Assembly: GCA_964372915.1 (NCBI GenBank)
Contig: CAYJRN010000004.1
Coordinates: 55,516-119,515 of the forward strand
Length of the DNA: 64,000 nt
Direction of reading: 5' to 3'
Source of the DNA: an uncultured Planctomycetales bacterium
GTDB taxonomy: Bacteria > Omnitrophota > Gorgyraeia > Zapsychrales > JAHFFX01
The translations under genes were made by a program, and so were the position numbers. The notes below the pieces were generated by a model. That model had not been told where the DNA came from, made no database searches, and saw nothing but the letters and a program-made list of their open reading frames with translations. Shown piece after piece: positions 1,059 to 35,878 of this stretch (position 1 is its first letter; the number at the start of each line of letters is the position of its first letter).

Positions 1059-1158
1059 CCCCGCCGCATTCTTGCAGAATGCAAGAGGCGGGGTCAATTC
1101 CGGCTCTCACTTACGTCGTAATCTCCGTAAGTGAGGCCGTCATTGAAGGAGGCATTGC
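1059..1158 (+). repeat. Intergenic repeat element E, copy 3 (hairpin cassette ending in GTCATTGAAGGAGG directly before the ptsN start)
   Basis: ccccgccgcattcttgcagaatgcaagaggcgggg hairpin + GGGTCAATTCCGG + ctcacttacg…cgtaagtgag hairpin + gtcattgaaggagg; the same architecture occurs at 31150-31309 and 35691-35878. Confidence 0.65.
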
Positions 1159-1629
1159 ATGAAGATTGGCGATTTTCTTTTGCCGAAGGCGATCACAGCG
1201 GATTTGAAAGGTAACACAAAAGAAGAGGTCATCGAAGAGTTGGTGAAGTTGTTGGTCGCCACCGGCGCGATTGACAAAAAACACAAGGCCAAACTCGTCG
1301 AGATTCTGATGGCCCGTGAAGCGCTGGGTTCCACCGCCATCGGACAGGGAATCGCGATCCCGCACGGCAAATGCGAATACGTCAATAAGCTCATCGCCGG
1401 CCTCGGTATCAGCAGAAGTGGAATCGATTTCGATTCTCTAGATGGAGAACCGGCGCACATATTTTTCTTATTGGTCGCTCCCGCCGATTCCGCGGGGCCC
1501 CACCTCAAAGCCCTGGCCAGAATTTCACGTTTGTTGAAAGACAAATACTTCCGAGAACATCTTAAGAACGTCAAAGACGAAAAAATGATCCTGGAACTTA
1601 TTTCCCAGGAAGATGATCGGGTCCTTTAA
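1159..1629 (+). CDS. ptsN: PTS IIA-like nitrogen-regulatory protein PtsN (EIIA-Ntr)
   Basis: 156 aa; fructose/mannitol-type EIIA fold with the phosphorylatable His region (IAIPHGK); clustered with ptsH/ptsI. Confidence 0.75.
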   Translation: MKIGDFLLPKAITADLKGNTKEEVIEELVKLLVATGAIDKKHKAKLVEILMAREALGSTAIGQGIAIPHGKCEYVNKLIAGLGISRSGIDFDSLDGEPAHIFFLLVAPADSAGPHLKALARISRLLKDKYFREHLKNVKDEKMILELISQEDDRVL

Positions 1630-1643
1630 AACCCTACAGTCTC

Positions 1644-2882
1644 ATGTCCCAAAATTTCCTTAAGTGGTTTTATCCCCGTTTAAAGATCAAGCGGTGGTTT
1701 CTTACCTCTCTGCTGGGAATCCTGATCGTCTGGTTGGGGGCGATCTTCACGACCAAACCCTATTCGATTGTCAATGCCTTTGGGTTTGTCGTTATCTTTG
1801 TAGGCATTGCTTTTATTGTCTGGGGAATTTCCGAAACCATCATTTCGATCTTAAGTCTGTTTCTTCCCGGCGGCGTCCAGGAGCTCGTCAACATCCTCTA
1901 TCAGAGGCGTTACTTGGAGCGAGGGCCTAAAGTGGTCGCGATTGGAGGAGGCCACGGCCTTTCGAATCTTTTATTAGGATTAAAGGGATATACCTCGAAT
2001 TTGACGGCCATCGTCACGGTCGCCGACAGCGGCGGTTCTTCCGGACGCTTGAGAGAAGAGTTCAACATTGTCGCCCCGGGAGATATCCGTAACTGCCTGG
2101 TCGCTTTGGCCGATGCGCCGGCTTTGATGGGCAATCTCTTTCAATTTAGATTTTCCAAAGATTCCCAGCTGCAAGGCCACAATCTAGGGAATCTTTTCCT
2201 GACGGCGATGGTTCAATTGATGGACGGGGATTTTGAAAAAGCGGTGAAGGAATGCAGCAAGGTTTTGGCCATTCGCGGGAAGGTCGTTCCGGCGACGGTC
2301 AGCAACATCCATTTGGTGGCGGAATATATGGACGGTAGCCGCACCCAAGGAGAGGCCAGAATTCCTAAAAGCGGAGCCAAGATTAAACGTCTGACTTTAA
2401 CCGACAATGCCAACCCAACAGAAGATGCCCTGGAGGCCATCCGTCAGGCGGAAATTATTGTTTTGGGACCGGGAAGTCTATACACAAGCGTCATTCCCAA
2501 TCTTATCATCAAGGGAATGGCCGAGGCGATCGCCGGGTCTCGGGCCTATAAGCTTTATGTATGCAATGTGATGACCCAGCGCGGCGAGACGGAAGGGTAT
2601 TCGGCCGCCGATCACATCCAAGCCATTCTTGATCATGCCAATGGAGGGGTTATGAACGCCTGCATCGTCAATAACGCCGTTGTCCCAAAGAATGCGCTCA
2701 GCCGTTATGAAGCCGAAGACTCTTATCCGGTTAAACCCGACACGGAAAAGATTCACGACATGGGATATGAAGTGGTCGCCACGGATCTTTTGACCGTCAA
2801 CGATTACGTCCGTCACGATTCGAGAAAATTAACCAAAGCCTTGATCAATCTCATTGAAAAGCATCGTGTGATCAAACGTTAA
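1644..2882 (+). CDS. YvcK/CofD-like gluconeogenesis factor family protein (UPF0052) with an N-terminal 2-TM extension
   Basis: Core VVAIGGGHGLSNLLLGLK…TVADSGGSSGRLR typical of the YvcK/CofD family; the N-terminal ~90 aa are hydrophobic. Confidence 0.7.
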   Translation: MSQNFLKWFYPRLKIKRWFLTSLLGILIVWLGAIFTTKPYSIVNAFGFVVIFVGIAFIVWGISETIISILSLFLPGGVQELVNILYQRRYLERGPKVVAIGGGHGLSNLLLGLKGYTSNLTAIVTVADSGGSSGRLREEFNIVAPGDIRNCLVALADAPALMGNLFQFRFSKDSQLQGHNLGNLFLTAMVQLMDGDFEKAVKECSKVLAIRGKVVPATVSNIHLVAEYMDGSRTQGEARIPKSGAKIKRLTLTDNANPTEDALEAIRQAEIIVLGPGSLYTSVIPNLIIKGMAEAIAGSRAYKLYVCNVMTQRGETEGYSAADHIQAILDHANGGVMNACIVNNAVVPKNALSRYEAEDSYPVKPDTEKIHDMGYEVVATDLLTVNDYVRHDSRKLTKALINLIEKHRVIKR

Positions 2883-2892
2883 CAAGAGCACG

Positions 2893-3022
2893 GTGTAACA
2901 ACCCTGAGTCCCTCGACTTCGCTCGGGATGGTGAGCTTGTCGAACCACAAGTCCCGGACTTCCCCGGCCCGCCAGAGGCGACAGCCGGGACGGGCAGTCC
3001 GGGGTGTGTCGAAGGGTTGACC
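2893..3022. repeat. GC-rich intergenic repeat element A (related to copy B at 8337-8472)
   Basis: Shares GTGTAAC…TCGACT(T)CGCTC…CTGAGCTTGTCGAA…AGTCCGGGGTG(T/C)GTCGAAGGGTTGAC with 8367-8472; both copies encode the same spurious antisense peptide VNPSTHPGL. Confidence 0.65.
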
Positions 3023-3042
3023 GTAATCCATGGACCCCAAGG

Positions 3043-3306
3043 ATGCCCAAGATCGAAAAAGAGATGACAATTATGAATGGCCAGGGACTTCATGCCCGTC
3101 CGGCGGCGATGTTCGTTCAGATCGCGGTCAAATACGATTCCAAGATTACCGTTAAGAAAGGCGAGGAAGCGGTTAACGGCAAATCCATTATGGGGATTCT
3201 GATGCTGGGGGCACAGCATCTAAATAAGGTGACGCTGACTATCGAAGGCGATGATGCCGAGGCGGCCTTGAAGGAACTTGAGGAGTTTTTAGGAAAAGAT
3301 GGATGA
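3043..3306 (+). CDS. ptsH: Phosphocarrier protein HPr
   Basis: [11 protein letters not shown] active-site His motif with HPr length and fold signature; start ambiguous between ATG 3043 and ATG 3064 (3043 gives an N-terminal length closer to known HPr). Confidence 0.8.
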
Positions 3307-5071
3307 AGATGAAGTTGTCTTAAAAGGGATTCCGGCGGCACCGGGCATTGCGAGCGGTTCAGCGTTTATCCTCGACAAGCAGGACTTTATTGTCCCGGTC
3401 CGGGCGGTGATGAAACAGGAAGTCCCCATTGAAATTGCGCGCTTTGAGGAGGCCCTCATTAAGACCCGCGAGGAAATTCTGGCTATCCAGAAAAAAATCA
3501 GCGAGGCGATGGACGGCCAGCATGCGAAAATTTTTGATGCGCATCTGCTTGTGCTCGAGGATCGTATGCTCATTGAAGAGGTCATTAAGGATATCAAAAA
3601 GGAAAAACTTTCCGCCGAGTACATCTTCTCCAAGGTTTTGAAGAAATATACCAAGGCGATGTCTAAAATTGAGGATGAGTACCTGCGCGAGCGCACCGGC
3701 GATGTGAATGATATCGGGCGCCGAATCCTCAAGAATCTCATGGAGGAGAGCAAGCTCCAGGAGTTCGAAGATCTCACGGAAAAGATCATCATTGTGGCGC
3801 ATGACCTTTCTCCCTCGGACACAATCACCATGTACCATAAAAATATCATAGCGTTTGTGACTGACATCGGCGGCAGAACCTCTCACACGGCGATCATGGC
3901 GAAATCTTTGGGGGTGCCGGCGGTCGTGGGGTTAAAAGATTCCACGCTTAAGATCAACAATCAGGATCATATTATCGTGGACGGCCGTATGGGGCTGGTT
4001 ATTGTCAATCCCACCTCAACAACGGAGGGGATCTACCGCAACGAACAGAATCGCATTGTGGCCCTCAAGGACCGTTTCGCCGACATCAAAGATCTTCCGG
4101 CTCAAACCATCGACGGCAAAAAAGTTTCCATCCTGGCGAATATTGAATTGCCGGAGGAAATCCCGATGGTCAAAAAATACGGCGCCTCCGGGATCGGTCT
4201 TTACCGCACCGAATACATGTATATGAATCGGGTGGATCTTCCTCTGGAAGAAGAGCAGTTCAAAGCCTATCAGCAGGTGGCTAAGGCCATGGCCCCTTAC
4301 CCGGTCACGATCCGCAGCCTTGATCTGGGCGGCGATAAGTTTGTTTCCAGCTTGCAGATCCCTCGGGATATGTCTCCGTTCTTAGGCTGGCGGGCGATCA
4401 GGTTCTGCTTGGAACGCCCCGATATTTTTAAGGCCCAACTGCGAGCGATTCTTAGAGCGTCCATGTATGGGAAATTGCGCCTGATGTACCCGATGATCTC
4501 GGGGGCCGGGGAACTGCGTCAGGCAAACGCTATCCTGGAAGAAGTCAAAGTCAATTTGAGGGAAGAAAAAATCCCGTTTGATGAACAAATGCCGGTAGGT
4601 GTCATGATCGAAGTTCCTTCAGCGGCGTTAACCGCCGATCTTCTGGCGCGGGAAGCAAAGTTTTTTAGTATCGGCACCAATGACCTTATCCAATACACGC
4701 TGGCCGTCGAGCGCATCAATGAAAAGACCGCGGACCTTTATGAGCCGGGACATCCGGCAGTTTTGAAACTCATCAAGGCGTCCATCGACGCCGGTCACAA
4801 AGAGAATATCAGCGTGGGGCTTTGCGGAGAAATGTCGAGTGAGCCTTCGCTCGCTTTGCTTTTGTTGGGGTTGGGGTTGGATGAATTCAGCATGTCTCCG
4901 GGAAGTATTTTGCAGATCAAGAAACTCATCAGGAGTGTCCGTTTCACGGATGCCCAGAAGCTGGCCAACAAGGCCCTGACTATGTCGACGGGACAGGAAG
5001 TAGAGGAGATCGCCGTCGCCCGCCTGAAGGAGCTTGCCCCGAACATTTTTACGACCGAGAGGGAAGACTGA
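3299..5071 (+). CDS. ptsI: Phosphoenolpyruvate-protein phosphotransferase (PTS Enzyme I)
   Basis: 590 aa; [21 protein letters not shown] phospho-His region and the C-terminal PEP-utilising domain (…LDLGGDK…GTNDLIQY…). Confidence 0.9.
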
Positions 5072-5075
5072 CGCC

Positions 5076-5813
5076 ATGAAGGTCTTGATTCTTGCCGCCG
5101 GCTATGGCACGCGACTTGAGGTCATCGCCAAGGATATCCCGAAGCCATTGTTGTCCATCAAGGATCGGCCGCTCATCGATTATATCGCGGACAAATTCCG
5201 CAATCTTTCCGGAATCTCTCAGATTCTCGTTGTGACCAATAACAAATTTTTTCATGCCTTTGAATCGTGGGCCGAGAAACAAAAGGATTTTTCTCAAAAA
5301 CCGAAAGTCATCAATGATGGTTCCAAGTCTCCGGATGAGCGTCTGGGATCCATGGGCGACATCAACTTTGTTATTCAAAAGGAAAAAATCTCGGAGGACC
5401 TCTTGGTTGTTGGGGGTGACAATTTGTTCGATGCCGGCCTTGAGGATTTTATCCGCCGGGCTAAGGAAAATTCTCCTCATGTGACGATCGGCCTGTATGA
5501 TATCAAAGAGAAAGAAAAGGCGAAAATCTTTGGCGTTGTCGGTCTGGATGAAAAGGGAAAAGTGATTTCCTTCGAGGAAAAACCTTCGCAACCCAAATCC
5601 ACGCTCATCGGGATGTGCCTGTATTATTATCCAAAGGAATCGCTTGGGCTTGTGGATCGCTACCTCAAGGAATCCAAGAAATCGGATACGGCCGGCGATT
5701 ATATCAACTGGTTGTACCAAAAAGAAAGTGTTTATGGTTTTAAATTTTCGGGGAAATGGTATGATATCGGGAGCGTTGAATCCTATTATGAGGCGTCGGG
5801 GAACTTTAAATGA
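5076..5813 (+). CDS. Sugar-phosphate nucleotidyltransferase (NDP-sugar pyrophosphorylase family)
   Basis: MKVLILAAGYGTRL…KPLL… N-terminal nucleotidyltransferase signature; RBS GAGAGGGAAG upstream; substrate unknown. Confidence 0.65.
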   Translation: MKVLILAAGYGTRLEVIAKDIPKPLLSIKDRPLIDYIADKFRNLSGISQILVVTNNKFFHAFESWAEKQKDFSQKPKVINDGSKSPDERLGSMGDINFVIQKEKISEDLLVVGGDNLFDAGLEDFIRRAKENSPHVTIGLYDIKEKEKAKIFGVVGLDEKGKVISFEEKPSQPKSTLIGMCLYYYPKESLGLVDRYLKESKKSDTAGDYINWLYQKESVYGFKFSGKWYDIGSVESYYEASGNFK

Positions 5814-5851
5814 CCCCGTAGACCTATATTCAGAAAGGAAGGAAATCTAAA

Positions 5852-7000
5852 GTGAAAGAGAAATATTTTATTACTTCAGAATCCGTCGGTAACGGTCATC
5901 CGGATAAAGTGTGCGATCAAATTTCTGATGCGGTGTTGGATTGCGTCCTCAAGGACGATCCCAAAGGGCGCGTGGCCTGCGAAACATTTGTCACCGCGGG
6001 GCTCGTCATCGTCGGGGGCGAGATCACGACCAAGACATTCGTCGATGTGCACAAATTGGTTCGCCGGGTGCTCACCGAAATTGGTTACACGCATAGTAAA
6101 TACGGATTCAATTCCGAAACTTGCGCTATCCTCAATGCCATCAACGGTCAGTCGCCGGACATTGCGCAAGGCGTGGACACGGGCGGTGCCGGGGACCAGG
6201 GCATCATGATCGGCTATGCCTGCGATGAGACGCCGGAGCTTATGCCTTTGCCCATCATGCTCGCGCACCGTTTGGTCAAGCGCGTGGAAGACGTGCGAAG
6301 CAAGATTCTCCCTTACCTGGGGCCGGATTGCAAGAGCCAAGTGACCGTCGAATACAAAGACGGAGTGCCGCAAAGAGTTGATACGGTCGTTCTGGCCTGT
6401 CAGCATACGGAAGAAATTCTCGATAAGACCGGTAAAAAGATTACCGATCAAGCCCGTGAGGAAATGATCAATGAGGTTGCCAAGCCGATCGTCGGAAAAA
6501 TGGCAGATAAGGGTACCAAATATTACGTCAATCAAACCGGAAAATTCATTGTCGGCGGTCCGCAGTCGGACACGGGAATGACGGGACGCAAGATCGTCGT
6601 GGATACCTACGGAGGTGTCGTTTCCCACGGCGGCGGGGCTTTTTCCGGCAAGGATCCGACCAAGGTGGACCGTTCCGCAACCTATATGGCCCGTTATCTG
6701 GCCAAGAATATCGTCGCGGCCAAGCTCGCCAAGAAATGCTGGATTCAATTCGGCTATTGTATCGGCAAGGCCGAACCGGTGAGCGTCATGATCGACACCT
6801 ATGGGACGGGAAAAATTTCTGATCAGAAGTTGGTTGAGTTGACGCGTAAGCACTTTGATCTCACCCCCAAGGGTATTATTGAGACACTCAAGCTTTTGGT
6901 GCCGATTTACCAAAAAACAGCCGCCTACGGTCATTTCGGTCGTGAGGAATTTTCCTGGGAAAAGACCGATAAGGTCAATCTCTTCAAGAAGAATGCGTAA
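5852..7000 (+). CDS. metK: S-adenosylmethionine synthetase
   Basis: GTG start; …[22 protein letters not shown]… and [17 protein letters not shown] motifs. Confidence 0.9.
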
Positions 7001-7004
7001 AAAT

Positions 7005-8261
7005 ATGAAGTATGATATTAAGAATCGTTCGCTGGCCAAGAAAGGGAAACTCCGTATTGAATGGGCCGGGCGGGATATGCCGGTCCTCAAGCTCATTGAA
7101 AAAAGATTTAAGCAAGAAAAGCCTTTGAAGGGTTTAAAGGTGAGTTGCTGTTTGCACGTGACCACAGAAACAGGCAATCTCGCGCGTGTTCTAAAGGCCG
7201 GCGGGGCGCAAGTGGCTGTTTGCGCTTCCAATCCGTTATCCACTCAGGATGATGTGGCGGCGTCTCTGGTCGAGGATTATGGCATTCCGGTTTTTGCCAT
7301 CAAAGGGGAAGATAGGGATACCTATTACAACCATTTGAATGCCGCGCTTGATATCAAACCGAATCTCACCATGGATGACGGCGCGGATCTGGTGTCGGTC
7401 GTGCATCAAAAACGAAGGAATCTCGCCCAGAATATTTTTGCGGGAACGGAAGAAACGACCACGGGCGTCATCCGCCTGAAAAGCCTTGAACAGCAGAATC
7501 TCTTGCTGTACCCCATCATTGCCGTCAACGACGCCATGACGAAACATTTTTTTGACAACCGTTACGGCACGGGCCAGTCGACGCTCGATGGGATCATCCG
7601 CGCCACCAACCGTTTGATCGCCGGCGCCAATTTTGTCGTGAGCGGTTACGGCTGGTGCGGTCGAGGCGTGGCGAGTCGGGCTGCCGGGATGGGGGCAAGC
7701 GTCATCATCACGGAGGTGAATCCTTTACGCGCCCTTGAGGCCATCATGGATGGCTATCGGGTGATGCCGATTAAGCAAGCCGCCCGGGTGGGCGACATTT
7801 TTGTGACCGTGACCGGCGATATCAACGTCATCCGCGCCGAGCACATGGTTTTAATGAGAGACGGCGCTATCCTTGCTAATTCCGGGCACTTCGACGCGGA
7901 ATTGGATTTAAAAGGCCTTACCAAAATCACCAAGGCCAAACGCCTGATCCGTGATTTTGTCGAGGAGCATAAGCTGACCAACGGCCGTAATATTTATATT
8001 CTAGGGGAAGGTCGTTTGATCAATCTCGCTTCTGCCGAAGGGCACCCAGCTTCCGTCATGGACATGAGCTTTGCCAATCAGGCGCTCTCTGCCGAATACG
8101 TGGCTAAAAACCACACAACGTTACAGAAGAAAGTCTACGGCGTTCCCGAGGCCATCGATCGGATGATTGCCAAGTTGAAACTTGAGAGCCTAGGTGTTAA
8201 AATTGATACCCTAACACCCGAGCAAAAAAAATACCTGTCTAGCTGGGAAATGGGAACTTAA
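7005..8261 (+). CDS. ahcY: Adenosylhomocysteinase (S-adenosyl-L-homocysteine hydrolase)
   Basis: ~418 aa from ATG 7005; NAD-binding [13 protein letters not shown] and conserved AdoHcyase blocks; the ORF-track frame extends upstream, but the conserved N-terminus begins [14 protein letters not shown]. Confidence 0.88.
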
Positions 8262-8290
8262 GACGTTTGCAAGTTATTGAGAAGAACCCA

Positions 8291-8323
8291 AGGCTACAGG
8301 TGGCGGACGGCTGCTTGTAGCCT
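8291..8323 (+). terminator. Hairpin after ahcY (putative terminator, no T-run)
   Basis: aggctaca…tgtagcct 8-bp stem 30 nt after the ahcY stop. Confidence 0.3.
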
Positions 8324-8336
8324 TAATCCTTGTTGC

Positions 8337-8472
8337 CACTGCGCGGCCCGCTTGGCGGGCCGCGCAGTGTAACCCATTCGACTCGCTCCGCTCGCTCATG
8401 GCCCTGAGCTTGTCGAAGGGCAACCCTGAGCAAGCCCCGGACTGAAGTCCGGGGTGCGTCGAAGGGTTGACG
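8337..8472. repeat. GC-rich intergenic repeat element B (15-bp perfect palindrome + element A-like core)
   Basis: cactgcgcggcccgc-ttgg-cgggccgcgcagtg followed by gtgtaac…cgactcgctc…ctgagcttgtcgaaggg…agtccggggtgcgtcgaagggttgac. Confidence 0.65.
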
Positions 8473-8500
8473 TTTGTATCATGAACCACGGGAGTGAATC

Positions 8501-9517
8501 ATGCCAAAAATCTATTATGACAAAGACGCGGATTTGAATTTTATCAAAGATAAAAGGATCGCGATTATTGGCTACGGGATCCAAGGCCGGGGACACGCGC
8601 TCAATTTACGCGACAGCGGCCTCAAGGTTGTTGTCGGGCAACGCTCCCCGCAAGAAGCCGCGGGGCAGGCCGGAGGGTCTAATTATGAACAGGCGAAGAA
8701 AGACGGTTTTACGCCGATGGAAGCGACCGAGGCCGCCAAGAGTGCGGATATCATTGTGATCCTTACCCAGGATCACCTGCAGGGGGAAGTGTACAAGAAA
8801 TCCATCAAAAAGAATTTGAAGAAGGGCAAGTCGCTCGTTTTCTCTCACGGTTTTAATATCCATTTCAAACAGATCGTTCCCCAAAGGGATGTGGATGTGT
8901 TCATGATCGCTCCGAAAGGGCCGGGCTCACTGGTGCGCCGGCAGTATGAAGAGGGCAAAGGCGTCCCTTGTTTGGTGGCCATTCATCAGGACCCCTCGGG
9001 GCAGGCGCTTAAAACCGCGCTCGCTTATGCCAAAGGGATCGGGGGGGCTCGCGCCGGGGTCATCGAAACGACGTTCAAAGAAGAAACCGAGACCGATCTT
9101 TTCGGCGAACAGTCCGTCCTGTGCGGCGGCACCTCCGAACTGGTGAAGGCGGGCTTTGAAACGCTGGTGGCCGCCGGCTATCAGCCGGAGATTGCTTACT
9201 TTGAGTGTTTGCATGAGCTTAAACTCATCGTCGATCTTATTTATGAAGGCGGTTTGACGGGCATGCGCAGGCGCGTCTCCGACACGGCCGAGTACGGCGA
9301 TTACACAAGGGGGCCCCGCGTCATCAATCAAAGGACCCGCAAAGAAATGCAGAAGATCCTCAAGGAAATTCAATCGGGAAAATTTGCCCGCGAATGGATG
9401 AGGGAAAACAAAAAGGGCCGTCCCAATTTTAACGAATTCCGCAAGCGCGACGAGAATCATCCGGTGGAAGCGGTGGGGCGCGAGCTACGGGATATGATGC
9501 CCTGGATGAAGAAATAG
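8501..9517 (+). CDS. ilvC: Ketol-acid reductoisomerase
   Basis: 338 aa; [21 protein letters not shown] Rossmann motif and KARI C-terminal domain. Confidence 0.9.
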
Positions 9518-9582
9518 ATCCCTCGGCCGAGCGAGTTTATATGGAATCTAAGGGGCCTCGGGATAAATTCGACTAACAACTT

Positions 9583-10290
9583 ATGTCGTTTTGCTCCATA
9601 AGTTGTAGTCTTATTTATGATGCCGTGGATGAAAAAATAGTTATGGCCGTTGAGACAAAAATCCAAGCGCCATTAAAATTGCACTTAGGCTGCGGGACCA
9701 ACAAGCTTTCCGGATGGGTGAATATCGACTCGGTCAAGGGCTGTGGGCCGGATCAGGTTCTGGATTTGATGCAGCCTTTGCCGTATACAGATGAGAGTGT
9801 CGATGAAATCCTCGGCGAGGATTTGCTGGAACATTTTGACAAATACATGCGCTTTGTGGTTTTTGGCGAATGGGCCAGAGTTTTAAAAATTGGAGGGACG
9901 ATCACCGTACAGGTCCCCGATTTAGAGAAAATTTTATCAAAGCAACGCAAATTCGGTGGTCTTGAGAATTTTATGGATTTTATTTTTGGCGAAAATATGT
10001 GGCGCTCCGAAATTTATATAGGACACTTCGGCAATCACAAGTGCGGTTATTCTGACAAGTCACTACAGGAATTTGTATCGCATTTTGGAATTAAAACCGT
10101 CTCGTTAGAAACCGTTGGCTTCAATTTGCGTTTGACGGGGCACAAAGCCCGGCATGTTCCAGCGGAGGAACTCGATAAAATACTGATTCATTCCCACGCG
10201 AACGCGACCGGCATCGGCCAGGCCGATTTGTCGCTTGGGTTTGTGCGGGAGAAAATTAAACAGTTTCAGAAAAATATAGAAAGCGACTAA
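9583..10290 (+). CDS. Class I SAM-dependent methyltransferase-like protein (hypothetical)
   Basis: LKLHLGCGTNKLSGWVNID motif-I-like segment; likely true start near 9643 (MAVETK…); function unknown. Confidence 0.5.
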   Translation: MSFCSISCSLIYDAVDEKIVMAVETKIQAPLKLHLGCGTNKLSGWVNIDSVKGCGPDQVLDLMQPLPYTDESVDEILGEDLLEHFDKYMRFVVFGEWARVLKIGGTITVQVPDLEKILSKQRKFGGLENFMDFIFGENMWRSEIYIGHFGNHKCGYSDKSLQEFVSHFGIKTVSLETVGFNLRLTGHKARHVPAEELDKILIHSHANATGIGQADLSLGFVREKIKQFQKNIESD

Positions 10291-10292
10291 TT

Positions 10293-10366
10293 CGTCACAA
10301 GTCACAAGGTCACACGTCATAAGTAGTTTTTACTTGTGCCTTGTGTCTTGTGACATGTGACTTTTA
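10293..10366 (+). promoter_or_regulatory. Long imperfect hairpin built from tandem GTCACAAG / CTTGTGAC heptamer repeats, followed by TTTT; terminator or leader structure upstream of leuA
   Basis: gtcacaagtcacaaggtcacacgtcataagtag-ttttt-acttgtgccttgtgtcttgtgacatgtgac then ttttaagg, 12 nt before the leuA ATG. Confidence 0.45.
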
Positions 10367-10377
10367 AGGAATAACTT

Positions 10378-11889: not shown

Positions 11890-11895
11890 GAATAG

Positions 11896-11946: not shown

Positions 11947-11947
11947 T

Positions 11948-28214: not shown

Positions 28215-29248
28215 AAAAATATCGGAACATCTTGGTTGTCCGCACGGATCGCGTGGGCGATGTCATTCTGACAACGCCCGCCCTCGCGGCGTTGAGGGCG
28301 GGTTATCCGAAGGCGCGAATTTCCATTCTCATGGCGCCTTCCAATCTGGAGCTCGTAGAGGGAAATCCGAATTTAGATGAGGTGCTATTCGATGATCGTC
28401 AAGGAAAACATAGAGGGTTCATTGGTTTTCTAAAATTGGTGAGAGAAGTCAAGTCCAGGGCCTTTGATGCCGCGTTTATTTTTCACACCAAGAGAAGGAC
28501 GAATCTGCTTTGCTTCCTGGCGGGGATCCCGGAAACCATTGGTTATAAAAACGATAAGTTGGGTTTCTTGTTGACACGGGGGCTCATTGATACCCGGCCG
28601 CAGGGGTTAAAGCCTGAGGCGGAATATTGTCTGGATGTTTTAAGAGCGGTGGGAATTCCCATAAAAGACCCTCAACTCTTTCTTTATGTGAGCCCGGAGG
28701 CGGAACGTTGGGCCCGGAGATTTTTTTTAGAAAACGGTATCGATGATCAAGATAAGCTGGTGGCTATCCATCCGGGAGCCAGTTGCATTTCCAAAAGATG
28801 GATGCCCGAACGGTTCGCCGAAGTCGCCGACCAGTTGAGGGAAAGGCGCCCCTACAAAATTGTTTTCATCGGCTCCGCGGACAATCGAGAAATCATGCAA
28901 AATATCAAATCCGCCTTGAAAATCAAGGCGCTCGACGCGACGGGAATGACGACTTTGGCTCAACTGGCCGGCCTCTTGAAGCGTTGCGCGCTGTTGATCT
29001 CTAACGATTCCGGCCCCGTGCACATCGCCGCGGCTCTTAAGGTCCCGGTCATTTCCATCTTTGGCCGCAATCAGGCGGGTTTAAGCCCCTTACGCTGGGG
29101 GCCGCTCACCTCCAAGAGTGTCATCTTGCATAAAGAAGTGGGTTGTCCCGTGTGCCTGGCGCACAATTGTAATATTAACTTTAAGTGCTTGGAAGAAATC
29201 AAGACCCAGGAGGTTTTAGAAGCTGTTGACGCCCTTTTGAGACTATGA
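28211..29248 (+). CDS. Glycosyltransferase family 9 (LPS heptosyltransferase-like), paralogue 3
   Basis: ILVVRTDRVGDVILTTPALAALRAGYP…DSGPVHIAAALKVPVISIFG. Confidence 0.75.
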   Translation: MKKYRNILVVRTDRVGDVILTTPALAALRAGYPKARISILMAPSNLELVEGNPNLDEVLFDDRQGKHRGFIGFLKLVREVKSRAFDAAFIFHTKRRTNLLCFLAGIPETIGYKNDKLGFLLTRGLIDTRPQGLKPEAEYCLDVLRAVGIPIKDPQLFLYVSPEAERWARRFFLENGIDDQDKLVAIHPGASCISKRWMPERFAEVADQLRERRPYKIVFIGSADNREIMQNIKSALKIKALDATGMTTLAQLAGLLKRCALLISNDSGPVHIAAALKVPVISIFGRNQAGLSPLRWGPLTSKSVILHKEVGCPVCLAHNCNINFKCLEEIKTQEVLEAVDALLRL

Positions 29249-29297
29249 TAAAATCAACCCTTGTTTTGTTAACAAATTCTTACTGCCCAAAGGTTTT

Positions 29298-30323
29298 TTG
29301 ATGAGACATTATAACGAAATCATCGCCAATTTCCGCAAGAAAAGGATTTTGGTGATCGGGGACATCTTGCTGGATGAATATGTGTTTGGGAGTGTCTCCC
29401 GGGTTTCGCCGGAAGCGCCTGTCCCCATCGTGTTGCAGGAAGGGCAGCCCAGCTATACACCGGGAGGGTCTGCTAATGTCGCCAACAACCTGCAATCGTT
29501 AGGGGCCCGTGTGACGCTCATGGGAAAAGTCGGCGCCGACAAAGAAGGCGCGATTCTTCTTAAGGAGCTTAAGAAAAGAAAAATCAATACCACCGCTATC
29601 ATGGTCGATCGCAGGATTTCCACGCCCTTGAAAACTCGCATTGTGGCCCAGCACCAACAGGTTTTACGGCTCGACCGTGAAACAGTTTGCGATTTTTCCG
29701 ACGCGTCCTTAAAAGAAAAAGTCCGACGCTACTTTAAGTCATCCATCAAGAATTTTGATGCCGTGATTATTTCCGATTACGGCAAAGGGATGATTACCGC
29801 CGATCTTGTTTCGCAGGTCTGTTTGAGCGCCATCCAGGCGAAGAAAATCATTACCGTGGACCCTAAAGTCGAACACTTCACGTATTATCAAGGGGTGACC
29901 GCGATTACCCCCAACCGTAAAGAAACCGAGAACGCGATTCGTAACATCAAAATCACGCACAGCGCCGGTAAAAAGCTGGATGTCGAACACGATCGTCTGG
30001 AAACGGATGCCGACATTAAGCGGGCCGGCGAGGCAATCGTAAAATATTTGAAATTGAAAAGCCTTTTGATTACATTGGGCGAGCAGGGAATGGTCTTGTT
30101 TGAGGCGGGAAAGCCTCCGATTTATATCGATACTAAGGCCCAGGAAGTTTTTGATGTGACGGGCGCGGGCGACACGGTGATTTCGGTTTTTACTCTAGCG
30201 CTCACCGCCGGAGCGAGTCAGCGGCAGGCGGCGGATATGGCCAATTTCGCGGCCGGCATTGTCGTTGGAAAACGCGGAGCGGCGACCGTCACGCCTCAAG
30301 AACTTTTGGCGGCGATCCCATGA
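29298..30323 (+). CDS. hldE: D-glycero-beta-D-manno-heptose-7-phosphate kinase (RfaE/HldE domain I only, PfkB family)
   Basis: …ILVIGDILLDEYVFGSVSRVSPEAPVPIV…GGSANVANNL…DVTGAGDTV… PfkB ribokinase-like motifs; no adenylyltransferase domain II attached. Confidence 0.75.
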   Translation: MMRHYNEIIANFRKKRILVIGDILLDEYVFGSVSRVSPEAPVPIVLQEGQPSYTPGGSANVANNLQSLGARVTLMGKVGADKEGAILLKELKKRKINTTAIMVDRRISTPLKTRIVAQHQQVLRLDRETVCDFSDASLKEKVRRYFKSSIKNFDAVIISDYGKGMITADLVSQVCLSAIQAKKIITVDPKVEHFTYYQGVTAITPNRKETENAIRNIKITHSAGKKLDVEHDRLETDADIKRAGEAIVKYLKLKSLLITLGEQGMVLFEAGKPPIYIDTKAQEVFDVTGAGDTVISVFTLALTAGASQRQAADMANFAAGIVVGKRGAATVTPQELLAAIP

Positions 30324-31174
30324 GGACAAAAAGCCCCTCGATGATTTCAGCTCGTAATCCTTTAAAGACCAAGGCCACTGCCAAAACGCTGAAGGTCATC
30401 GGTGTCATCCCGGCCCGCTATGGTTCCACGCGTCTTGCGGCCAAGGTGCTGGCGGATCTAAACGGCAAACCGATGATCCAGCATGTGTACGAGCGCGCGG
30501 CCAAGAGTCAATATTTGGATGAACTTTTGATTGCCTGCGACCATGAACGCGTTTTGAACAAAGCTAAAGAGTTCGGCGCCCAAGCGGTTTTAACGTCGGT
30601 CCATCACGCCTCGGGCACGGAACGGATCGCGGAAGCGGTGAAATCCATCGACGCGGAAATCGTCATTAACATTCAGGGAGATGAGCCGCTCATTCATCAT
30701 TCGGTGATCGATGATTTGGCAAAAGCCCTTTTGGATGATTCCAATTGTCTTATGGCCACGGCCATCAAGCCCGTTGCCGTTGGGAGCAAGGAGTTGGACG
30801 ATCCCAACATCGTCAAGGTCGTCATTGACAAGAATCACAATGCTTTGTATTTTTCGAGGTCGTTGATTCCTTATGTACGTAAATCTAGCGAAGGTTTGAG
30901 GTACTTTAAACATTTGGGGATTTATGCCTACCGGAAAAAGTTCTTGATGGGCTTTAAGGATTTACCGAAATCGCGTTTGGAAGAAACGGAAAGTTTGGAA
31001 CAGTTGAGAGTTCTGGAAGCCGGATACAAAATTAAGACCGTTGAAACCAACATCGAGACGATCAGCGTCGATGTGGAGGAAGATATCAAGAAGGTCGAGG
31101 AGTATTTGAAAAAATCATCATCATCGGCCACAACTTACGGAGTCTCGCCGAAGGCGGACGAACGTAAGTTGTGA
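30320..31174 (+). CDS. kdsB: 3-deoxy-manno-octulosonate cytidylyltransferase (CMP-Kdo synthetase)
   Basis: VIGVIPARYGSTRLAAKVLADLNGKPMIQHVYERA; ~30 aa N-terminal extension; the 3' end overlaps the start of repeat E copy 1. Confidence 0.85.
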   Translation: MRTKSPSMISARNPLKTKATAKTLKVIGVIPARYGSTRLAAKVLADLNGKPMIQHVYERAAKSQYLDELLIACDHERVLNKAKEFGAQAVLTSVHHASGTERIAEAVKSIDAEIVINIQGDEPLIHHSVIDDLAKALLDDSNCLMATAIKPVAVGSKELDDPNIVKVVIDKNHNALYFSRSLIPYVRKSSEGLRYFKHLGIYAYRKKFLMGFKDLPKSRLEETESLEQLRVLEAGYKIKTVETNIETISVDVEEDIKKVEEYLKKSSSSATTYGVSPKADERKL

Positions 31175-31309
31175 GCCGAACTCGACCCAGCACTTATTTT
31201 GCGACACGGTGTTAAAGCCAAAATAAGTGCTGGGTTCAATTCCGTCACAGACTTACGTCGCTCCAAATGGGAGCTTCCGTAAGTCTGGACGTCATTGAAG
31301 GAACATTAA
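31150..31309 (+). repeat. Intergenic repeat element E, copy 1
   Basis: …gacgaacgtaagttg…cccagcacttattttg-cgacacggtgttaaag-ccaaaataagtgctggg (16-bp perfect stem) + GGTTCAATTCCG + cagacttacg…cgtaagtctg + gtcattgaagga + ATG of kdsA. Confidence 0.7.
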
Positions 31310-32131
31310 ATGTCACGGATTGTGAATGTCGGGAAAATCAAAATCGGAAACGGGACGCCGCTGGTTCTTATCGCGGGCCCGTGCGTGATTGAAAGTCGCG
31401 CCCTTGCCTTCAAGGTCGCTTCCGAAATTAAAAAGATCACCGCCGCTTTGAAGATTCCATTCATTTTTAAAGCGAGCTATGACAAAGCCAACCGGACATC
31501 CCTGGCGTCATTCCGCGGCCCCGGGATGTCCCAAGGCTTGGAAGTTCTAAGGGAAATCAAGGAACGACTGGGTGTTCCGGTATTGAGTGACGTGCATAGT
31601 TCTCAAGAAGTACAAGAGGCGGCGCAAGTGCTCGATGTGTTACAGATCCCGGCGTTTCTTTGCCGGCAAACGGATATTCTTATTGCGGCCGCTCAAAGCG
31701 GAAGAGTGGTAAATATTAAAAAGGGCCAGTTTCTAGCGCCAGGGGATATGCAACAGGTCGTTAAGAAAATCGAATCCGCCGGCAATCGCAACATTCTTTT
31801 GACCGAACGAGGGGCCAGTTTCGGTTATAACAATTTGGTCACGGATTTTCGCTCGCTTTCGATTATGCGCAAGACCGGTTATCCGGTTGTGTTCGACGCC
31901 TCTCACAGCGTTCAGCAGCCCGGCGGTTTGGGGAGCGTCTCCGGGGGAATGAGCGAGTTCATTCCGTTATTAAGTCGCTGCGCCGTGGCGGCCGGCTGCG
32001 ATGCTGTTTTCATGGAAGTTCATCCTAATCCTAAGAAAGCCTTGTCGGACGGGCCCAATATGCTCAGGCTTGACCAGCTGAGGAAACTGCTCGTTGATTT
32101 AAAAGCGATTGATGCAATTGTGACCTTGTGA
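31310..32131 (+). CDS. kdsA: 2-dehydro-3-deoxyphosphooctonate aldolase (Kdo8P synthase)
   Basis: MSRIVNVGKIKIGNGTPLVLIAGPCVIES… DAHP/KDO8P synthase family. Confidence 0.9.
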   Translation: MSRIVNVGKIKIGNGTPLVLIAGPCVIESRALAFKVASEIKKITAALKIPFIFKASYDKANRTSLASFRGPGMSQGLEVLREIKERLGVPVLSDVHSSQEVQEAAQVLDVLQIPAFLCRQTDILIAAAQSGRVVNIKKGQFLAPGDMQQVVKKIESAGNRNILLTERGASFGYNNLVTDFRSLSIMRKTGYPVVFDASHSVQQPGGLGSVSGGMSEFIPLLSRCAVAAGCDAVFMEVHPNPKKALSDGPNMLRLDQLRKLLVDLKAIDAIVTL

Positions 32132-32143
32132 TTTTTAAAAGCC

Positions 32144-33100
32144 ATGTCTCTTAAGCTTGCCAAAGATGTCATCAAAATCGAAGCCGCCGCGGTGAAAAAT
32201 CTCGCGCGTGCGGTTGACGGGAATTTTCTCAAGGCCGTTGAAATGATCGTCAAGTGCAAAGGCCGGGTGATCGTGACCGGCATGGGCAAGGCCGGCATCA
32301 TCGGCCATAAGATCGCCGCGACACTTTCTTCGACGGGAACGCCCAGCATTTGGATGCATAGCGCCGAGGCCGTGCACGGGGATATGGGTCAAGTCACGCG
32401 CAATGACATCTTAATTCTCTTGTCGAATAGCGGCGAGACCGATGAAACCAAAAGACTTTTACCTCTCATAAAAAAAATCGGTGCCAAGATCATTGCCATG
32501 ACGGGCAATACAAAATCAACTTTGGCCAAGCACAGCGATGTGGTGTTAAACGTATCGGTGAGAACAGAAGGCTGTCCTCTGGGGCTCTCCCCGATGGCCT
32601 CCACGACGGCAACGTTGGTTATGGGCGATTGCTTGGCAGCGTGTCTCATTGAGCGCAAAGGCTTTAAAAAAGAAAATTTCGCTTTTAATCATCCGGCGGG
32701 AATGTTGGGGAAGAAATTGCTCTTGAGAGTAGAAGACATTATGCGCACTGGTCCTACGTTGGCCAAAGTGAAAGAACAGATGCGCGTGAAAGACGTTTTG
32801 CTTTCCATTACCCGCGCCCGCTGCGGTTCGGCATGTGTCATTGATGCTAAAGGACGGTTGGTAGGGATTTTCACCGATGGGGATTTGCGCCGGCATCTGG
32901 AAACGGACTCGGATCTTTCGTTGCGGAAAGTCAAGGACGTGATGACGCGAAAACCCACGACCATTGAGAAAGACAAATTGGCGACCGAGGCCTTAAGGAT
33001 TTTGCAGGATAAGAAGATCGACGAACTGCCGGTTGTTTCCAAAGGAAAATTGGTGGGACTCTTGGATGTTCAGGATTTATTGAAAGCCGGACTGGTATGA
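32144..33100 (+). CDS. kdsD: Arabinose-5-phosphate isomerase (SIS + tandem CBS)
   Basis: SIS domain (…GRVIVTGMGKAGIIGHKIAATLSSTGTPS…) followed by a CBS pair. Confidence 0.85.
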   Translation: MSLKLAKDVIKIEAAAVKNLARAVDGNFLKAVEMIVKCKGRVIVTGMGKAGIIGHKIAATLSSTGTPSIWMHSAEAVHGDMGQVTRNDILILLSNSGETDETKRLLPLIKKIGAKIIAMTGNTKSTLAKHSDVVLNVSVRTEGCPLGLSPMASTTATLVMGDCLAACLIERKGFKKENFAFNHPAGMLGKKLLLRVEDIMRTGPTLAKVKEQMRVKDVLLSITRARCGSACVIDAKGRLVGIFTDGDLRRHLETDSDLSLRKVKDVMTRKPTTIEKDKLATEALRILQDKKIDELPVVSKGKLVGLLDVQDLLKAGLV

Positions 33101-33152
33101 AGTTCATAATTATTTGTAGTTGCCATCACGATTTTTAAAATAGGAGGTTAAA

Positions 33153-33338
33153 ATGATATCTCCCAAAAAACAAATTGCCAAGATCATCAAAGAACAGCCG
33201 GAGGACAGTTCTTATGAGGAAATTCTCCGCGAGCTGGCTTTTGGCCGGATGGTGGATCGCGGGTTGGCCGATTCTAAGGTGGGTCGAACCATCAGCAATG
33301 CGGAAATGAAGCAGAGGATCAGCAAGTGGCGGAAATAA
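33153..33338 (+). CDS. Putative type II antitoxin (ParD/RelB-like partner of the downstream ParE)
   Basis: 61 aa; overlaps the downstream RelE/ParE toxin gene by 13 nt in the classic antitoxin-toxin order. Confidence 0.5.
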   Translation: MISPKKQIAKIIKEQPEDSSYEEILRELAFGRMVDRGLADSKVGRTISNAEMKQRISKWRK

Positions 33339-33628
33339 GGTGGACCCACGAAGCGCACAAGTGGCTTAAGGACATTCACGATTACATCGCCGTTGATAAT
33401 CCGATGGCGGCACATAAAGTCATCGAAGATATATTTCAAAAGGTTCAAGTGTTGCGACGTTTGCCTGAAATTGGTTTCCGGTATGATCGGTATCCTGAAT
33501 TAAACATTCGAATTTTGTTATATGGGCATTACCGGATTGCCTATTGGATCAAGTCAGTCGATCAGATCGATATTTTGGGAGTATTTCACGGGGCACTGGA
33601 GATTGATAACTATCTCAAGATGAATTAG
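33326..33628 (+). CDS. parE: RelE/ParE-family type II toxin
   Basis: 100 aa; …ILGVFHGALEIDNY… C-terminal ParE/RelE signature; size and operon context fit. Confidence 0.7.
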   Translation: MAEIRWTHEAHKWLKDIHDYIAVDNPMAAHKVIEDIFQKVQVLRRLPEIGFRYDRYPELNIRILLYGHYRIAYWIKSVDQIDILGVFHGALEIDNYLKMN

Positions 33629-33629
33629 C

Positions 33630-34157
33630 ATGCAATCCATGAATATGAAAGAAAGACTTAAAAAGATTAAACTTTTAATCATGGACGTCGACGGTGTTTT
33701 GACTGACGGCAGGATCGTCGTTGATGAGCGCGGCCGAGAAACCAAGAATTTTGACGTGCAGGATGGGTTTGGCATCGTTGTCTTCCAGCGCGCCGGTTTT
33801 AAAACGGCGATCCTGAGCGCCGCCCGGGCCTCGGCGGTCGTCAAGTACCGCGCCCGCGACCTTGAGATCGACCAAGTGCATTTGAACGCGTATCCTAAGA
33901 TTGATGCCTACAAAAAGATTTTAAGAGCCCTTAAACTCAACGATGAGGACGCTTGCTTCATCGGTGATGATTTGCCGGACCTGGAAGTTTTATCGAAGGT
34001 CGGTTTCGCCGTGGCTGTCCCTTACGCGAGGGCGGAAGTCAAAAAAGTCGCCGACTATATCACTAAGAAACAGGGCGGTAACGGCGCGGTCCGGGAAGTG
34101 ATTGAGCTCATTATGAAGACCCAAAACCTGTGGCCGAACCCTTCAGGGAAAAGGTGA
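33630..34157 (+). CDS. kdsC: 3-deoxy-D-manno-octulosonate 8-phosphate phosphatase (HAD family)
   Basis: LLIMDVDGVLTDGRIVV…GDDLPDL… HAD motifs I and IV; kdsD-kdsC-lpt context. Confidence 0.85.
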   Translation: MQSMNMKERLKKIKLLIMDVDGVLTDGRIVVDERGRETKNFDVQDGFGIVVFQRAGFKTAILSAARASAVVKYRARDLEIDQVHLNAYPKIDAYKKILRALKLNDEDACFIGDDLPDLEVLSKVGFAVAVPYARAEVKKVADYITKKQGGNGAVREVIELIMKTQNLWPNPSGKR

Positions 34158-34987
34158 CGATCGTGTTGAACCGAGTGTTTTTCATTATGCTTGTTTTTTT
34201 TAGCGGTGTTGTCTTTTTACACGCTGAAGACAGTCCGCAGCAATTCCAGGGATTCACCCTCGATGGGTATACGGATGGGGGGCACAAGGCCTGGGACGTG
34301 AAAGGCGATACCGCCGATGTCAGCGGTAATACCATCGAACTCACCAACCCCGATGCGAATTCCTATGGGAAGGATAATGTCAATATCAAGGCGAAAACCG
34401 GATCCATCGATAAAGAAAGCGGCCAGATGCATTTAGAGAAGGATGTGGTCATCACCACTCAAAGCGGAGCCAGGATGACGACGAATTCCCTTGATTGGGA
34501 ACGCGAAAAAGATTTGGTCACTACCAACGATAGAGTGAAGATCACGCGCGACGATATTATCGCCGAGGCGATGGGCGCGATAGCCCATCCCAATCTGCAG
34601 ACGGGCCAGATGAACAAGGACGTCACTGTTGAGCTGAGACCCAAACCCGATAAGGACGGAAATCCACAGTTGCCCGTGACCATCACTTGCGACGGGCCGC
34701 TGGAGATCGATCAATTGAAACAACAGGCGACCTTTAACAAGAACGTGGTCGCGGTCCAGGAAGGCCGGGAACTCAAGGCAGACAAAGTTGAGGTCTTCTT
34801 CGATCAGACCACCAAGCAGATTAAACAGATGATCTGCACCGGCCACGTCGCAATCACGCAGGGCGGCAACACGACTTATTCCGAATCCGCCGTCTACACC
34901 GCAGGAGACCAGAAGATGATTTTGTCGGGAAGACCGAAGCTCATTTTACAGACGCAAGGAGGCCAATTTGCATCTCCTGGAAACTAA
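34130..34987 (+). CDS. LPS transport periplasmic protein, LptC/LptA (OstA-like) family
   Basis: N-terminal hydrophobic anchor/signal, then an OstA-like beta-jellyroll region; located between kdsC and lptB as in kdsD-kdsC-lptC-lptA-lptB operons; start uncertain (GTG 34154 or 34163 likely). Confidence 0.6.
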   Translation: MAEPFREKVTIVLNRVFFIMLVFFSGVVFLHAEDSPQQFQGFTLDGYTDGGHKAWDVKGDTADVSGNTIELTNPDANSYGKDNVNIKAKTGSIDKESGQMHLEKDVVITTQSGARMTTNSLDWEREKDLVTTNDRVKITRDDIIAEAMGAIAHPNLQTGQMNKDVTVELRPKPDKDGNPQLPVTITCDGPLEIDQLKQQATFNKNVVAVQEGRELKADKVEVFFDQTTKQIKQMICTGHVAITQGGNTTYSESAVYTAGDQKMILSGRPKLILQTQGGQFASPGN

Positions 34988-35690
34988 AGGACTCGTTAAG
35001 ACCTACGGCGGCCGCCGGGTTGTCGACGGCTTAAGTATCTCGGTGGGTCGTTCCGAAATTGTGGGACTCTTGGGGCCCAATGGCGCCGGTAAGACGACGA
35101 CTTTTTATATGGCCGTGGGGATTGTGAAGCCCGAGGAAGGAAATATATTTTTTGATGAGGAAGATATCACCAAGAAACCCATCCATGAACGTTGCCGTCT
35201 GGGCATGGGATATCTCGCGCAGGAACCATCAATCTTCCGAAAATTGACCGTTGAGGAAAACATCCTGGCGATCCTGGAGACTTTGAACATCTCTCCGCGC
35301 GAACGCCAGTACCGCCTGCGCTCCCTTTTGGACGAATTGAACATTGCGCATCTGGCTAAGGCCAAGGCCTACACGCTTTCCGGCGGGGAACGAAGACGTC
35401 TTGAAATTACGCGGGCGTTAGTGACCAATCCGTCATTTTTGCTGTTGGACGAACCGTTTTCGGGGATTGATCCGATCGTCGTGGCCGAGGCGCAGGAAAT
35501 CATCAGAGACTTAAAAGGCCGGGGCTTGGGAATTCTTCTCACGGATCATAACGTTCGCGAGACGCTTTCGATCACCGACCGGGCGTATTTGATCGCCGAG
35601 GGCCGCGTTCTCATCTCCGGCTCGGCGCAGGATCTTATCAATGATCCAAAGGCCAGGAAGATTTATTTGGGGGAGAAGTTTACGATGTGA
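34968..35690 (+). CDS. lptB: LPS export ABC transporter ATP-binding protein
   Basis: GLLGPNGAGKTTTF Walker A, LSGGERRRLEI signature, LLLDEPFSGIDP Walker B. Confidence 0.88.
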   Translation: MHLLETKGLVKTYGGRRVVDGLSISVGRSEIVGLLGPNGAGKTTTFYMAVGIVKPEEGNIFFDEEDITKKPIHERCRLGMGYLAQEPSIFRKLTVEENILAILETLNISPRERQYRLRSLLDELNIAHLAKAKAYTLSGGERRRLEITRALVTNPSFLLLDEPFSGIDPIVVAEAQEIIRDLKGRGLGILLTDHNVRETLSITDRAYLIAEGRVLISGSAQDLINDPKARKIYLGEKFTM

Positions 35691-35878
35691 GTTGAGCGCA
35701 CAACTTGCGGAGCGTTTTAGGCGACGTAAGTTGACAGCGCGAAACTCACCCAGCACTTATTTTGCGATACCAGATTTAAGCCAAAATAGGTGCTGGGTAA
35801 ATTCGCACTTATAAGTTACGTCGTCCGCCAAAGGCGGACTCCGTAACTTATGTGCTCATTTAAGGAGTTAACAGCAAC
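35691..35878 (+). repeat. Intergenic repeat element E, copy 2
   Basis: …ggcgacgtaagttgacagcgcgaaactcacccagcacttattttgcgatacc…ccaaaataggtgctggg + gcacttataagttacg…cgtaacttatgtgc hairpin with inner gtccgcc/ggcggac + tcatttaaggag + ATG of tig. Confidence 0.7.

Follow-up and report, generated by a model that had tools for sequence, protein, structure and literature searches.

The 64-kb window analyzed here, the whole stretch of 64,000 nucleotides from contig CAYJRN010000004.1 of an uncultured Omnitrophota bacterium, carries a two-hairpin cassette directly upstream of a PTS-EIIA(Ntr)-like gene, kdsA and tig. The initial annotation described one architecture common to these three regions, which our analysis bears out: a first hairpin (H1) leads through GGGTnAATTC into a second hairpin (H2) built on ACTTACGTCG...TCCGTAAGT, and TCATTnAAGGA then ends 13–18 nt ahead of the ATG. 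Comparison with matched loci in other genomes indicates that the cassettes are probably orphan, gene-less copies of a GIY-YIG-nuclease hairpin-repeat element that pervades some Omnitrophota genomes, and not leaders of the genes that follow them.

A covariance model (R1), made from aligned H2 copies of the matched loci, finds seven copies of the ~60-nt H2 hairpin in the window, four forward and three inverted (Table 1); the fourth forward copy and the diverged inverted copy lie beyond the three regions first described. Because the hairpins 5' of H1 upstream of kdsA and tig are inverted H2 copies, both regions read as inverted H2–H1–H2 palindromes, and half units (H1–H2) lie upstream of the PTS-EIIA gene and after an ilvC-like gene. 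The core pattern TTACGTCG-N(4-30)-TCCGTAA has three matches in the window versus 0.00 expected from 100 shuffles, and the predicted folds of copies 1–3 are much stabler than those of shuffled sequences (z = -4.6, -9.7 and -9.1). Copy 3 shows compensatory changes, with AGTTACG/CGTAACT in one part of the stem and TAAAT/ATTTA replacing TCAAT/ATTGA in another.

Several details of the first description need revision. The perfect 16-bp H1 stem ascribed to two copies holds for copy 2 only, and copy 3 contains one G-T. Copy 1 had been said to start in the 3' end of kdsB; it follows tRNA-Gly (951–1024) and precedes the PTS-EIIA(Ntr)-like gene (identified by Pfam), which starts at 1159. The kdsB overlap belongs to copy 2, whose first hairpin, an inverted H2, lies in the 3' end of kdsB (open reading frame (ORF) 30320–31174), where it codes for a C-terminal extension of ~18 aa that is missing in relatives. 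The AATGA end of the diverged inverted H2 holds the TGA stop of ORF 57150–58163. The motif GGGTTCAATTCCG, previously likened to a tRNA T-loop, combines the end of H1 with the 5' strand at the base of H2, and it pairs with CGTCATTGA. A tRNA-like or T-arm reading was rejected, as ARAGORN and Rfam find just three true tRNAs and the motif is one strand of the covarying H2 stem.

Table 1. Hairpin copies and direct repeats located in the window.
Feature	Position	Strand	Evidence or description
H1 hairpin, copy 1	1059..1093	+	CCCCGCC...GGCGGGG class; sequence and fold
H2 forward copy 1	1092..1148	+	R1 64.7 bits, E 1e-16
Left direct repeat	9494..9517	+	Final 24 nt of the upstream ilvC-like ORF (...MMPWMKK*)
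H1-like hairpin of forward copy 4, imperfect	9520..9562	+	Sequence
H2 forward copy 4, TTATG/CATAA variant	9562..9619	+	R1 55.1 bits, E 1e-13
Right direct repeat, duplicate of 9494–9517	9617..9640	+	Identical at 22/24 positions
Inverted H2, first hairpin of copy 2	31122..31181	-	R1 24.8 bits
H1 class a, copy 2; arms CCCAGCACTTATTTTG / CAAAATAAGTGCTGGG, 17-nt joiner	31186..31236	+	Sequence and fold
H2 forward copy 2, 13 nt ahead of the kdsA ATG	31234..31300	+	R1 61.6 bits
Inverted H2 touching the stop codon of an lptB-like ABC ATPase gene (ORF 34968–35690)	35687..35749	-	R1 51.7 bits, E 1e-12
H1 class a, copy 3, one G-T	35749..35798	+	Sequence and fold
H2 forward copy 3, 18 nt ahead of the tig ATG	35796..35864	+	R1 73.4 bits
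Inverted diverged H2	58155..58218	-	R1 26.5 bits, E 7e-5; sequence
H1 hairpin of the inverted copy, CCCCAAAGCTGC...GCAGCGTGGGG	58217..58250	-	Sequence

GIY-YIG nuclease genes between H2 copies

A scan of a genome collection places the H2 pattern at at least 118 loci in ~100 species-level assemblies, labelled almost all Omnitrophota or coarse 'Planctomycetia'; loci compared with the window are designated by L numbers. A small GIY-YIG nuclease gene is found together with H2. Pfam domain PF01541 is present in six ORFs of 68–81 aa (E 5e-10 to 2e-16), all small single-domain GIY-YIG proteins, and within the units described below the gene encodes 77–81 aa. The ORF has H2 on at least one side in 10 of 11 contexts, and in eight it lies between inverted H2 copies, inside H1. 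In L148 a 77-aa ORF takes the place of the H1 loop between an inverted and a forward H2; the sequences on its two sides, CCCAGCACTAATTTT / AAAATTAGTGCTGGG, form the arms of H1 in window copies 2 and 3. Homologous ORFs are placed likewise in L178, L176 (partial) and L163, and adjoin an H2 copy in L139 and L173.

By nhmmer, H2 flanks the gene on both sides in L148, L178, L176, L163, L288, L293 and L294. One H2 is diverged or truncated in L291 and L139, the diverged left copy of L291 being seen by eye alone; L173 has H2 on one side only and L191 has none. L191 (3650–4400) holds an ORF of the same GIY-YIG superfamily amid repeated partial copies of a tRNA 5' end (CGGGGCGTAGCG...), without H2 hairpins. 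The four independent homologue contexts that we fetched (L288, L291, L293 and L294) have H2-type copies on both sides in every case. Their layout runs from the stop of the upstream gene through inverted H2, GAATTnA and CCCAGCACTAATTTT to the nuclease gene, from its ATG to its TAA, and then through AATTAGTGCTGGG, TnAATTC, H2 and TCATTnAAGGAGG to the ATG of the downstream gene. The junctions occupied are coaE|rho, nadE|pqqD, V-ATPase D|I and x|rpmE. Class-a arms of 15–16 nt surround the ORF among the closest homologues, in L148, L178, L288, L291, L293 and L294, where the bracketing pair is CCCAGCAC(T/G)AATTT(T/C) and its complement, the arms of which H1 is made in window copies 2 and 3.

A database search returns at least 184 homologues of the nuclease, of 71–124 aa, and the named organisms among them are Omnitrophota, including Ca. 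Velamenicoccus archaeovorus; an NCBIfam search of the nuclease returns no family. Loci L288–290 share their sequencing runs with the window's exact KdsA and match in GC. The 3' part of the window H1 loops (TTAAAGCCAAAATAAG) is similar to how the nuclease ORFs end at their 3' side, an in-frame stop included, a likeness that fits an internal deletion.

H2 structure and the case for a host RNA element

Read 5' to 3', the H2 consensus consists of TnAAT, TC, GnnC, a 2-nt bulge, ATAACTTACG, TC and G plus a variable tip, followed by C, TC, CGTAAGTTAT, GnnC, TC and ATTnA. It contains two symmetric TC/TC internal loops, and an extra stem is present at the bulge in about one third of the loci. The variable tip often carries (G)ACGTAAG in the three-way-junction copies of L107, L118, L171, L180 and L195, and this segment could take the place of the usual 3' strand in pairing with the conserved CTTACGT, giving an alternative fold. 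An alignment of 79 copies has 94.9% of its cells paired, with 13 pairs altered on both sides; 0/500 shuffles attain this, and slid controls are 27–41% paired. Covariation in the stems is strong, and a covariance-model search, as the initial annotation had proposed, recovers further copies. H1 is always CCC...GGG and falls into several sequence classes that recur across species, with loops of 3 to about 30 nt; the CCCGCC/GGCGGG class of window copy 1 also precedes H2 in L112, L187, L193 and L182. A division into 'start-side' (AATTC/TCATT) and 'stop-side' (AAGTTC/TCACTT) hairpin subtypes was considered and proved to be a tendency and no rule.

The foremost alternative is that the hairpins form a host RNA element, either a terminator-plus-leader or an 'mRNA punctuation' hairpin that is cut or blocks exonucleases, setting the 3' and 5' ends of messages and perhaps modulating ribosome access to the adjacent start. 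We consider this unlikely. Pairing kept with compensatory changes despite the age and diversity of the copies is what such an element would show, and the predicted RNA hairpins are very stable. However, stem mismatches comprise 13 G-T versus 19 A-C, with almost all remaining pairs Watson-Crick, and this absence of a G-T (in RNA, G-U) excess over A-C argues that pairing is maintained at the DNA rather than the RNA level. At the gathering threshold only tRNAs match Rfam, so that the element corresponds to no family there, and a permissive scan returns sub-threshold microRNA-type chance matches. A self-cleaving ribozyme or other known RNA was rejected because there is no Rfam match and the loops are merely 2x2.

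The placement of the copies bears on the same question. A profile search of the window and the 118 loci (886 kb) gives 205 copies, comprising 125 pattern seeds and 80 others. Among 48 adjacent pairs, 41 are (-)(+), their AATTC ends facing each other across a gap, typically ~46 nt, that corresponds to H1, and none is (+)(-). Consistent with an RNA function, most forward copies place their TCATT end 1–24 nt ahead of a start codon, reverse copies overlap the stop codon of their neighbour (TCATTA read backwards is TAATGA), and singles between co-directional genes are biased 2:1 toward gene direction (50 forward, 25 reverse). Composites also occupy successive junctions of an rnf-like operon in L196. 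Against this, about one third of copies are antisense to both neighbours, and positions are not conserved between species. The expectation that copies would occur beyond the window is borne out, but they do not always abut a start codon: stop codons and tRNAs are neighbours too, and a copy may be followed by the stop codon of an opposite-strand gene, a reversed tRNA or a canonical terminator (terminators follow copies in L136, L186 and L198). Overall, the elements occupy otherwise very short intergenic spacers in either orientation. The downstream genes are unrelated housekeeping genes, some within ribosomal-protein, rnf and V-ATPase operons, and the four families that recur among 106 of them are at about the level of random placement.

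These observations also argue against the regulatory roles first proposed for the cassette. A terminator is not supported, as there is no U-tract, and simple scans detect neither terminator-like nor promoter-like sites in the elements, with no terminator-like one in 31122–31309 or 35687–35878. Nor does the element supply the Shine-Dalgarno sequence, which is part of the target gene: conservation across ~200 copies ends at TCATT(N)A, with the Shine-Dalgarno sequence outside the conserved unit, and many copies directly precede an ATG (often as TCATT-a-ATG) without one. A shared leader co-regulating translation fits poorly with the two orientations and with downstream genes that are unrelated and not conserved between species, and the suggestion that H2 could sequester or expose the ribosome-binding site is not borne out by the predicted folds, in which the Shine-Dalgarno sequence is unpaired. 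Lastly, a host RNA element would leave the nested nuclease gene unexplained. Taken together, the repeat observation itself is partly confirmed, and the interpretation first given to it is partly supported.

A few matches stand apart from the main distribution. Those in Balneola and Eubacteriales fall within ORFs and seem to be due to chance, and a scan of viral contigs with a looser pattern, giving 85 single matches or about the chance number, was set aside. Typical elements occur on 2–3-kb contigs in L164 (labelled Methanobacteriota) and L195 (labelled Margulisiibacteriota), which are probably mis-binned Omnitrophota. In L100 (4532–4775) three H1+H2 units stand in tandem at a period of 92 nt, and the TCATT end is missing from the first two.

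Evidence of insertion between genes

The proposal in the initial annotation that the cassette is mobile or duplicated is supported by our data. Flanking direct repeats of at least 11 nt are found around 15 of 192 copies, compared with 4 of 569 mismatched controls. Tandem arrays account for four of the 15, and the others duplicate the target. The duplicated targets include a stop+start junction in L112 (11 nt), a tRNA 3' end in L193 (13 nt), a tRNA 5' end in L187 (23 nt), a Shine-Dalgarno sequence plus start in L168 (~25 nt), where the Shine-Dalgarno sequence belongs to the duplicated target rather than to the element, and the last codons of an ilvC-like gene in L195 (31 nt). The end of the ilvC-like gene is also duplicated in the window (Table 1), so that this duplication is retained in two diverged species, around different element subtypes. 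Duplication lengths are 11, 12, 12, 13, 23, 24, ~25 and 31 nt, and for most copies none is detectable.

For an empty-site comparison we used 80 loci with KdsA at 56–74% identity (639 kb), which show kdsB–kdsA synteny where the upstream flank was read. They contain a single good H2 match, no nuclease homologue appears in these 639 kb of repeat-free sequence, and no conserved element was found upstream of kdsA in the 80 loci. In five cited relatives the kdsB|kdsA junction measures about 0–15 nt and is empty of the element. These tight junctions indicate that the 135-nt spacer in the window is an insertion, and that it supplies the last ~18 codons of kdsB. Some relatives have unrelated palindromic inserts in the same spacer (L210 ~7830–8000; L214 ~1560–1785; L215 ~4100–4250, ending ...GACATGTCATTGATATG), which suggests further hairpin-repeat families in related organisms.

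Inserted palindromes of this kind could instead belong to a family of the repetitive extragenic palindrome (REP)/BIME type, or to a classical MITE (miniature inverted-repeat transposable element) family, mobilized by a tyrosine (RAYT/IS200-IS605) or DDE transposase encoded at another locus, with the GIY-YIG gene a passenger favouring the same sites. The copies are indeed imperfect palindromes with a conserved asymmetry, alternate in orientation around several conserved linker types, lie between genes at roughly one per 9–11 kb, and show target duplications. We nevertheless find this reading improbable: no transposase-like family recurs among the 848 ORFs of the 118 loci, the consensus lacks a GTAG-type REP tetranucleotide, the duplication length is variable, and the H1 arms bracket the nuclease ORF exactly, overlapping its start and stop, in 10 of the 11 contexts, which is unexpected for a passenger. 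Integron attC sites, IS200/IS605-type ends and REP/RAYT were set aside on the combined grounds of housekeeping context, duplications present, no GTAG and no Y1 gene.

A promoter module, with a -35 in the H1 loop and its -10 at TnAATT, or else with a -10 at TAAGTT and messages that start at the A of TCATT and so have a short leader or none, is highly improbable even though TTGACA-N17-TCAATT can be read in some copies (L153) and many genes begin 1–5 nt after TCATT, since H1 loops of 3 to about 30 nt do not keep the spacing, covariation ties the base pairs including TnAAT to the 3' strand, a reverse copy would direct transcription into the gene upstream, and the scans find no promoter-like site in the elements.

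Several other features of the window were noted. Nearly all long gene-like ORFs in 1–64000 are on the + strand. A separate 44-nt hairpin repeat, ATTCTACTTCGCTCGCACATTTTCATGTGCGAGCTTCGTAGGAA, occurs at 513–556 and 646–689 (84% identical), directly after tRNA-Lys and before tRNA-Leu, with stem loops of the TTCG/CTTC type. A perfect 30-nt palindrome, TGAGGGGTCGGGGAATTCCCCGACCCCTCA, lies at 37396–37425 directly after clpP and is terminator-like on the minus strand in the scan. The trigger-factor ORF (35879–36793) encodes just 304 aa, with N and C domains and no match to the middle PPIase domain, and it overlaps the called clpP start.

A nuclease-associated element and its known counterparts

The closest known system is that of the Ssn nucleases (CDD clade cd10448) with their NTS/SRM repeats; we liken the two by the GIY-YIG domain, the flanking of the gene and the orphan repeats. 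As described by Chenal et al. 2025 (PMC11893778), Ssn nucleases are ~94-aa single-domain GIY-YIG proteins of Neisseria, Wolbachia and others. Hairpin repeats of ~30 nt (NTS/SRM), of which there are hundreds of copies, flank their genes. Binding and cleavage are confined to single-stranded DNA, close to the repeat and on one strand. The authors note an architecture like that of insertion sequences and of REP/RAYT, and raise mobility as a hypothesis only.

Returning to our preferred reading, in which the window cassettes are gene-less copies of a nuclease-carrying element, a complete unit of ~400 bp consists of inverted H2, a 15–16-nt arm, a GIY-YIG gene encoding 77–81 aa, the complementary arm and forward H2. 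Loss of the gene would join the two arms into H1 and leave an inverted H2–H1–H2 palindrome like those upstream of kdsA and tig. By analogy with Ssn and NTS, the nuclease may recognize H2 on single-stranded DNA, where the two conserved TC/TC mismatch loops could mark the strand, and it may nick near H2 and so drive or maintain the spread of the repeat. Effects on neighbouring genes, such as a stable hairpin beside a ribosome-binding site or a few extra kdsB codons, would be by-products.

Several points weigh against this reading. The 64-kb window contains no nuclease gene, and that its own genome has one is something we infer. The best solved relatives of the nuclease are weak UPF0213 matches (E 0.04–0.3), and the published SRM motif, HGTCWY...RNCYNB, is unmatched on both strands of the window and of seven nuclease-carrying loci. 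Recognition of H2 by the nuclease and the mechanism of spread are likewise what we infer by analogy. The duplication length varies from 11 to 31 nt, unlike that of a classical transposase, and no flanking duplication was found around the four full-length gene-carrying units tested. Median identity between copies is 0.683 within one genome and between species alike, with at least 90% identity in 3.9% of within-genome pairs; this pattern is unlike a recent burst and suggests either long-lived, constrained copies or many old lineages.

A bolder and still tentative proposal is that the H2 units constitute an active, previously undescribed transposon-like insertion element of ~400 bp, whose sole gene encodes a GIY-YIG single-strand nuclease, which is recognized through a structured 60-nt DNA hairpin, inserts into the few bases that separate genes while duplicating 11–31 nt of the target, and leaves large numbers of gene-less copies across a phylum of ultra-small bacteria. 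On our preferred reading, the element accounts for much of the non-coding DNA of these compact, uncultivated genomes. It would also serve as a warning for annotation, as apparent conserved leaders, C-terminal extensions (as in kdsB) and duplicated gene ends may derive from the inserted element. The class of hairpin-repeat-associated GIY-YIG single-strand nucleases (Ssn) would be extended to a new phylum, with a far more elaborate recognition hairpin, and the target duplications, the empty site in relatives and the gene-less derivatives would provide sequence evidence for the mobility of such units. The nucleases could, moreover, serve as new site-specific cutters of single-stranded DNA.

Like Ssn, the Omnitrophota system has a small single-domain GIY-YIG gene with hairpin repeats on both sides, many orphan repeats between genes (seven in the 64-kb window) and a conserved hairpin asymmetry that defines a strand. 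It differs in that its repeat is 2–3 times longer (about 60–100 nt), with two TC/TC internal loops and a bulge able to carry an extra stem, that an additional pair of arms surrounds the ORF, and that the proteins are shorter (77–81 aa versus 94 aa). Gene-less palindromic derivatives and target duplications are seen in Omnitrophota, whereas we found no description of them for Ssn in the parts consulted of PMC11893778.

REP/BIME elements, and REPINs with their RAYT genes, likewise consist of imperfect palindromes that lie between genes by the hundred, alternate in orientation and have several conserved types of linker; they too are linked to a single-copy gene of nuclease type with repeats on either side. 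The Omnitrophota enzyme, however, is a GIY-YIG protein and not a Y1 (HUH) transposase, the units are longer and lack the GTAG-type motif that stands beside a 20–40-nt palindrome in REP elements, and the core sequence is common to ~100 species instead of being species-specific. ERIC/IRU and Correia (NEMIS) elements resemble ours as imperfect palindromes of 100–200 bp in short transcribed spacers, in either orientation and in many species, but to our knowledge they have no cognate nuclease gene with the same ends, and Correia elements make fixed TA duplications where the Omnitrophota ones are long and variable. Free-standing GIY-YIG homing endonuclease genes such as phage T4 seg are similarly small genes between conserved genes; they move to the same locus and not into many different spacers, and we know of no long hairpin inverted repeats or large numbers of gene-less copies associated with them. 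Intrinsic terminators differ in having a U-tract, as the hairpins here are followed by TnAATTC or TCATTnA. Finally, the units lack the fixed-length target-site duplication of a classical MITE, but in the manner of a MITE, window copies 2 and 3 share both H2 and the class-a arms with the gene-carrying units.

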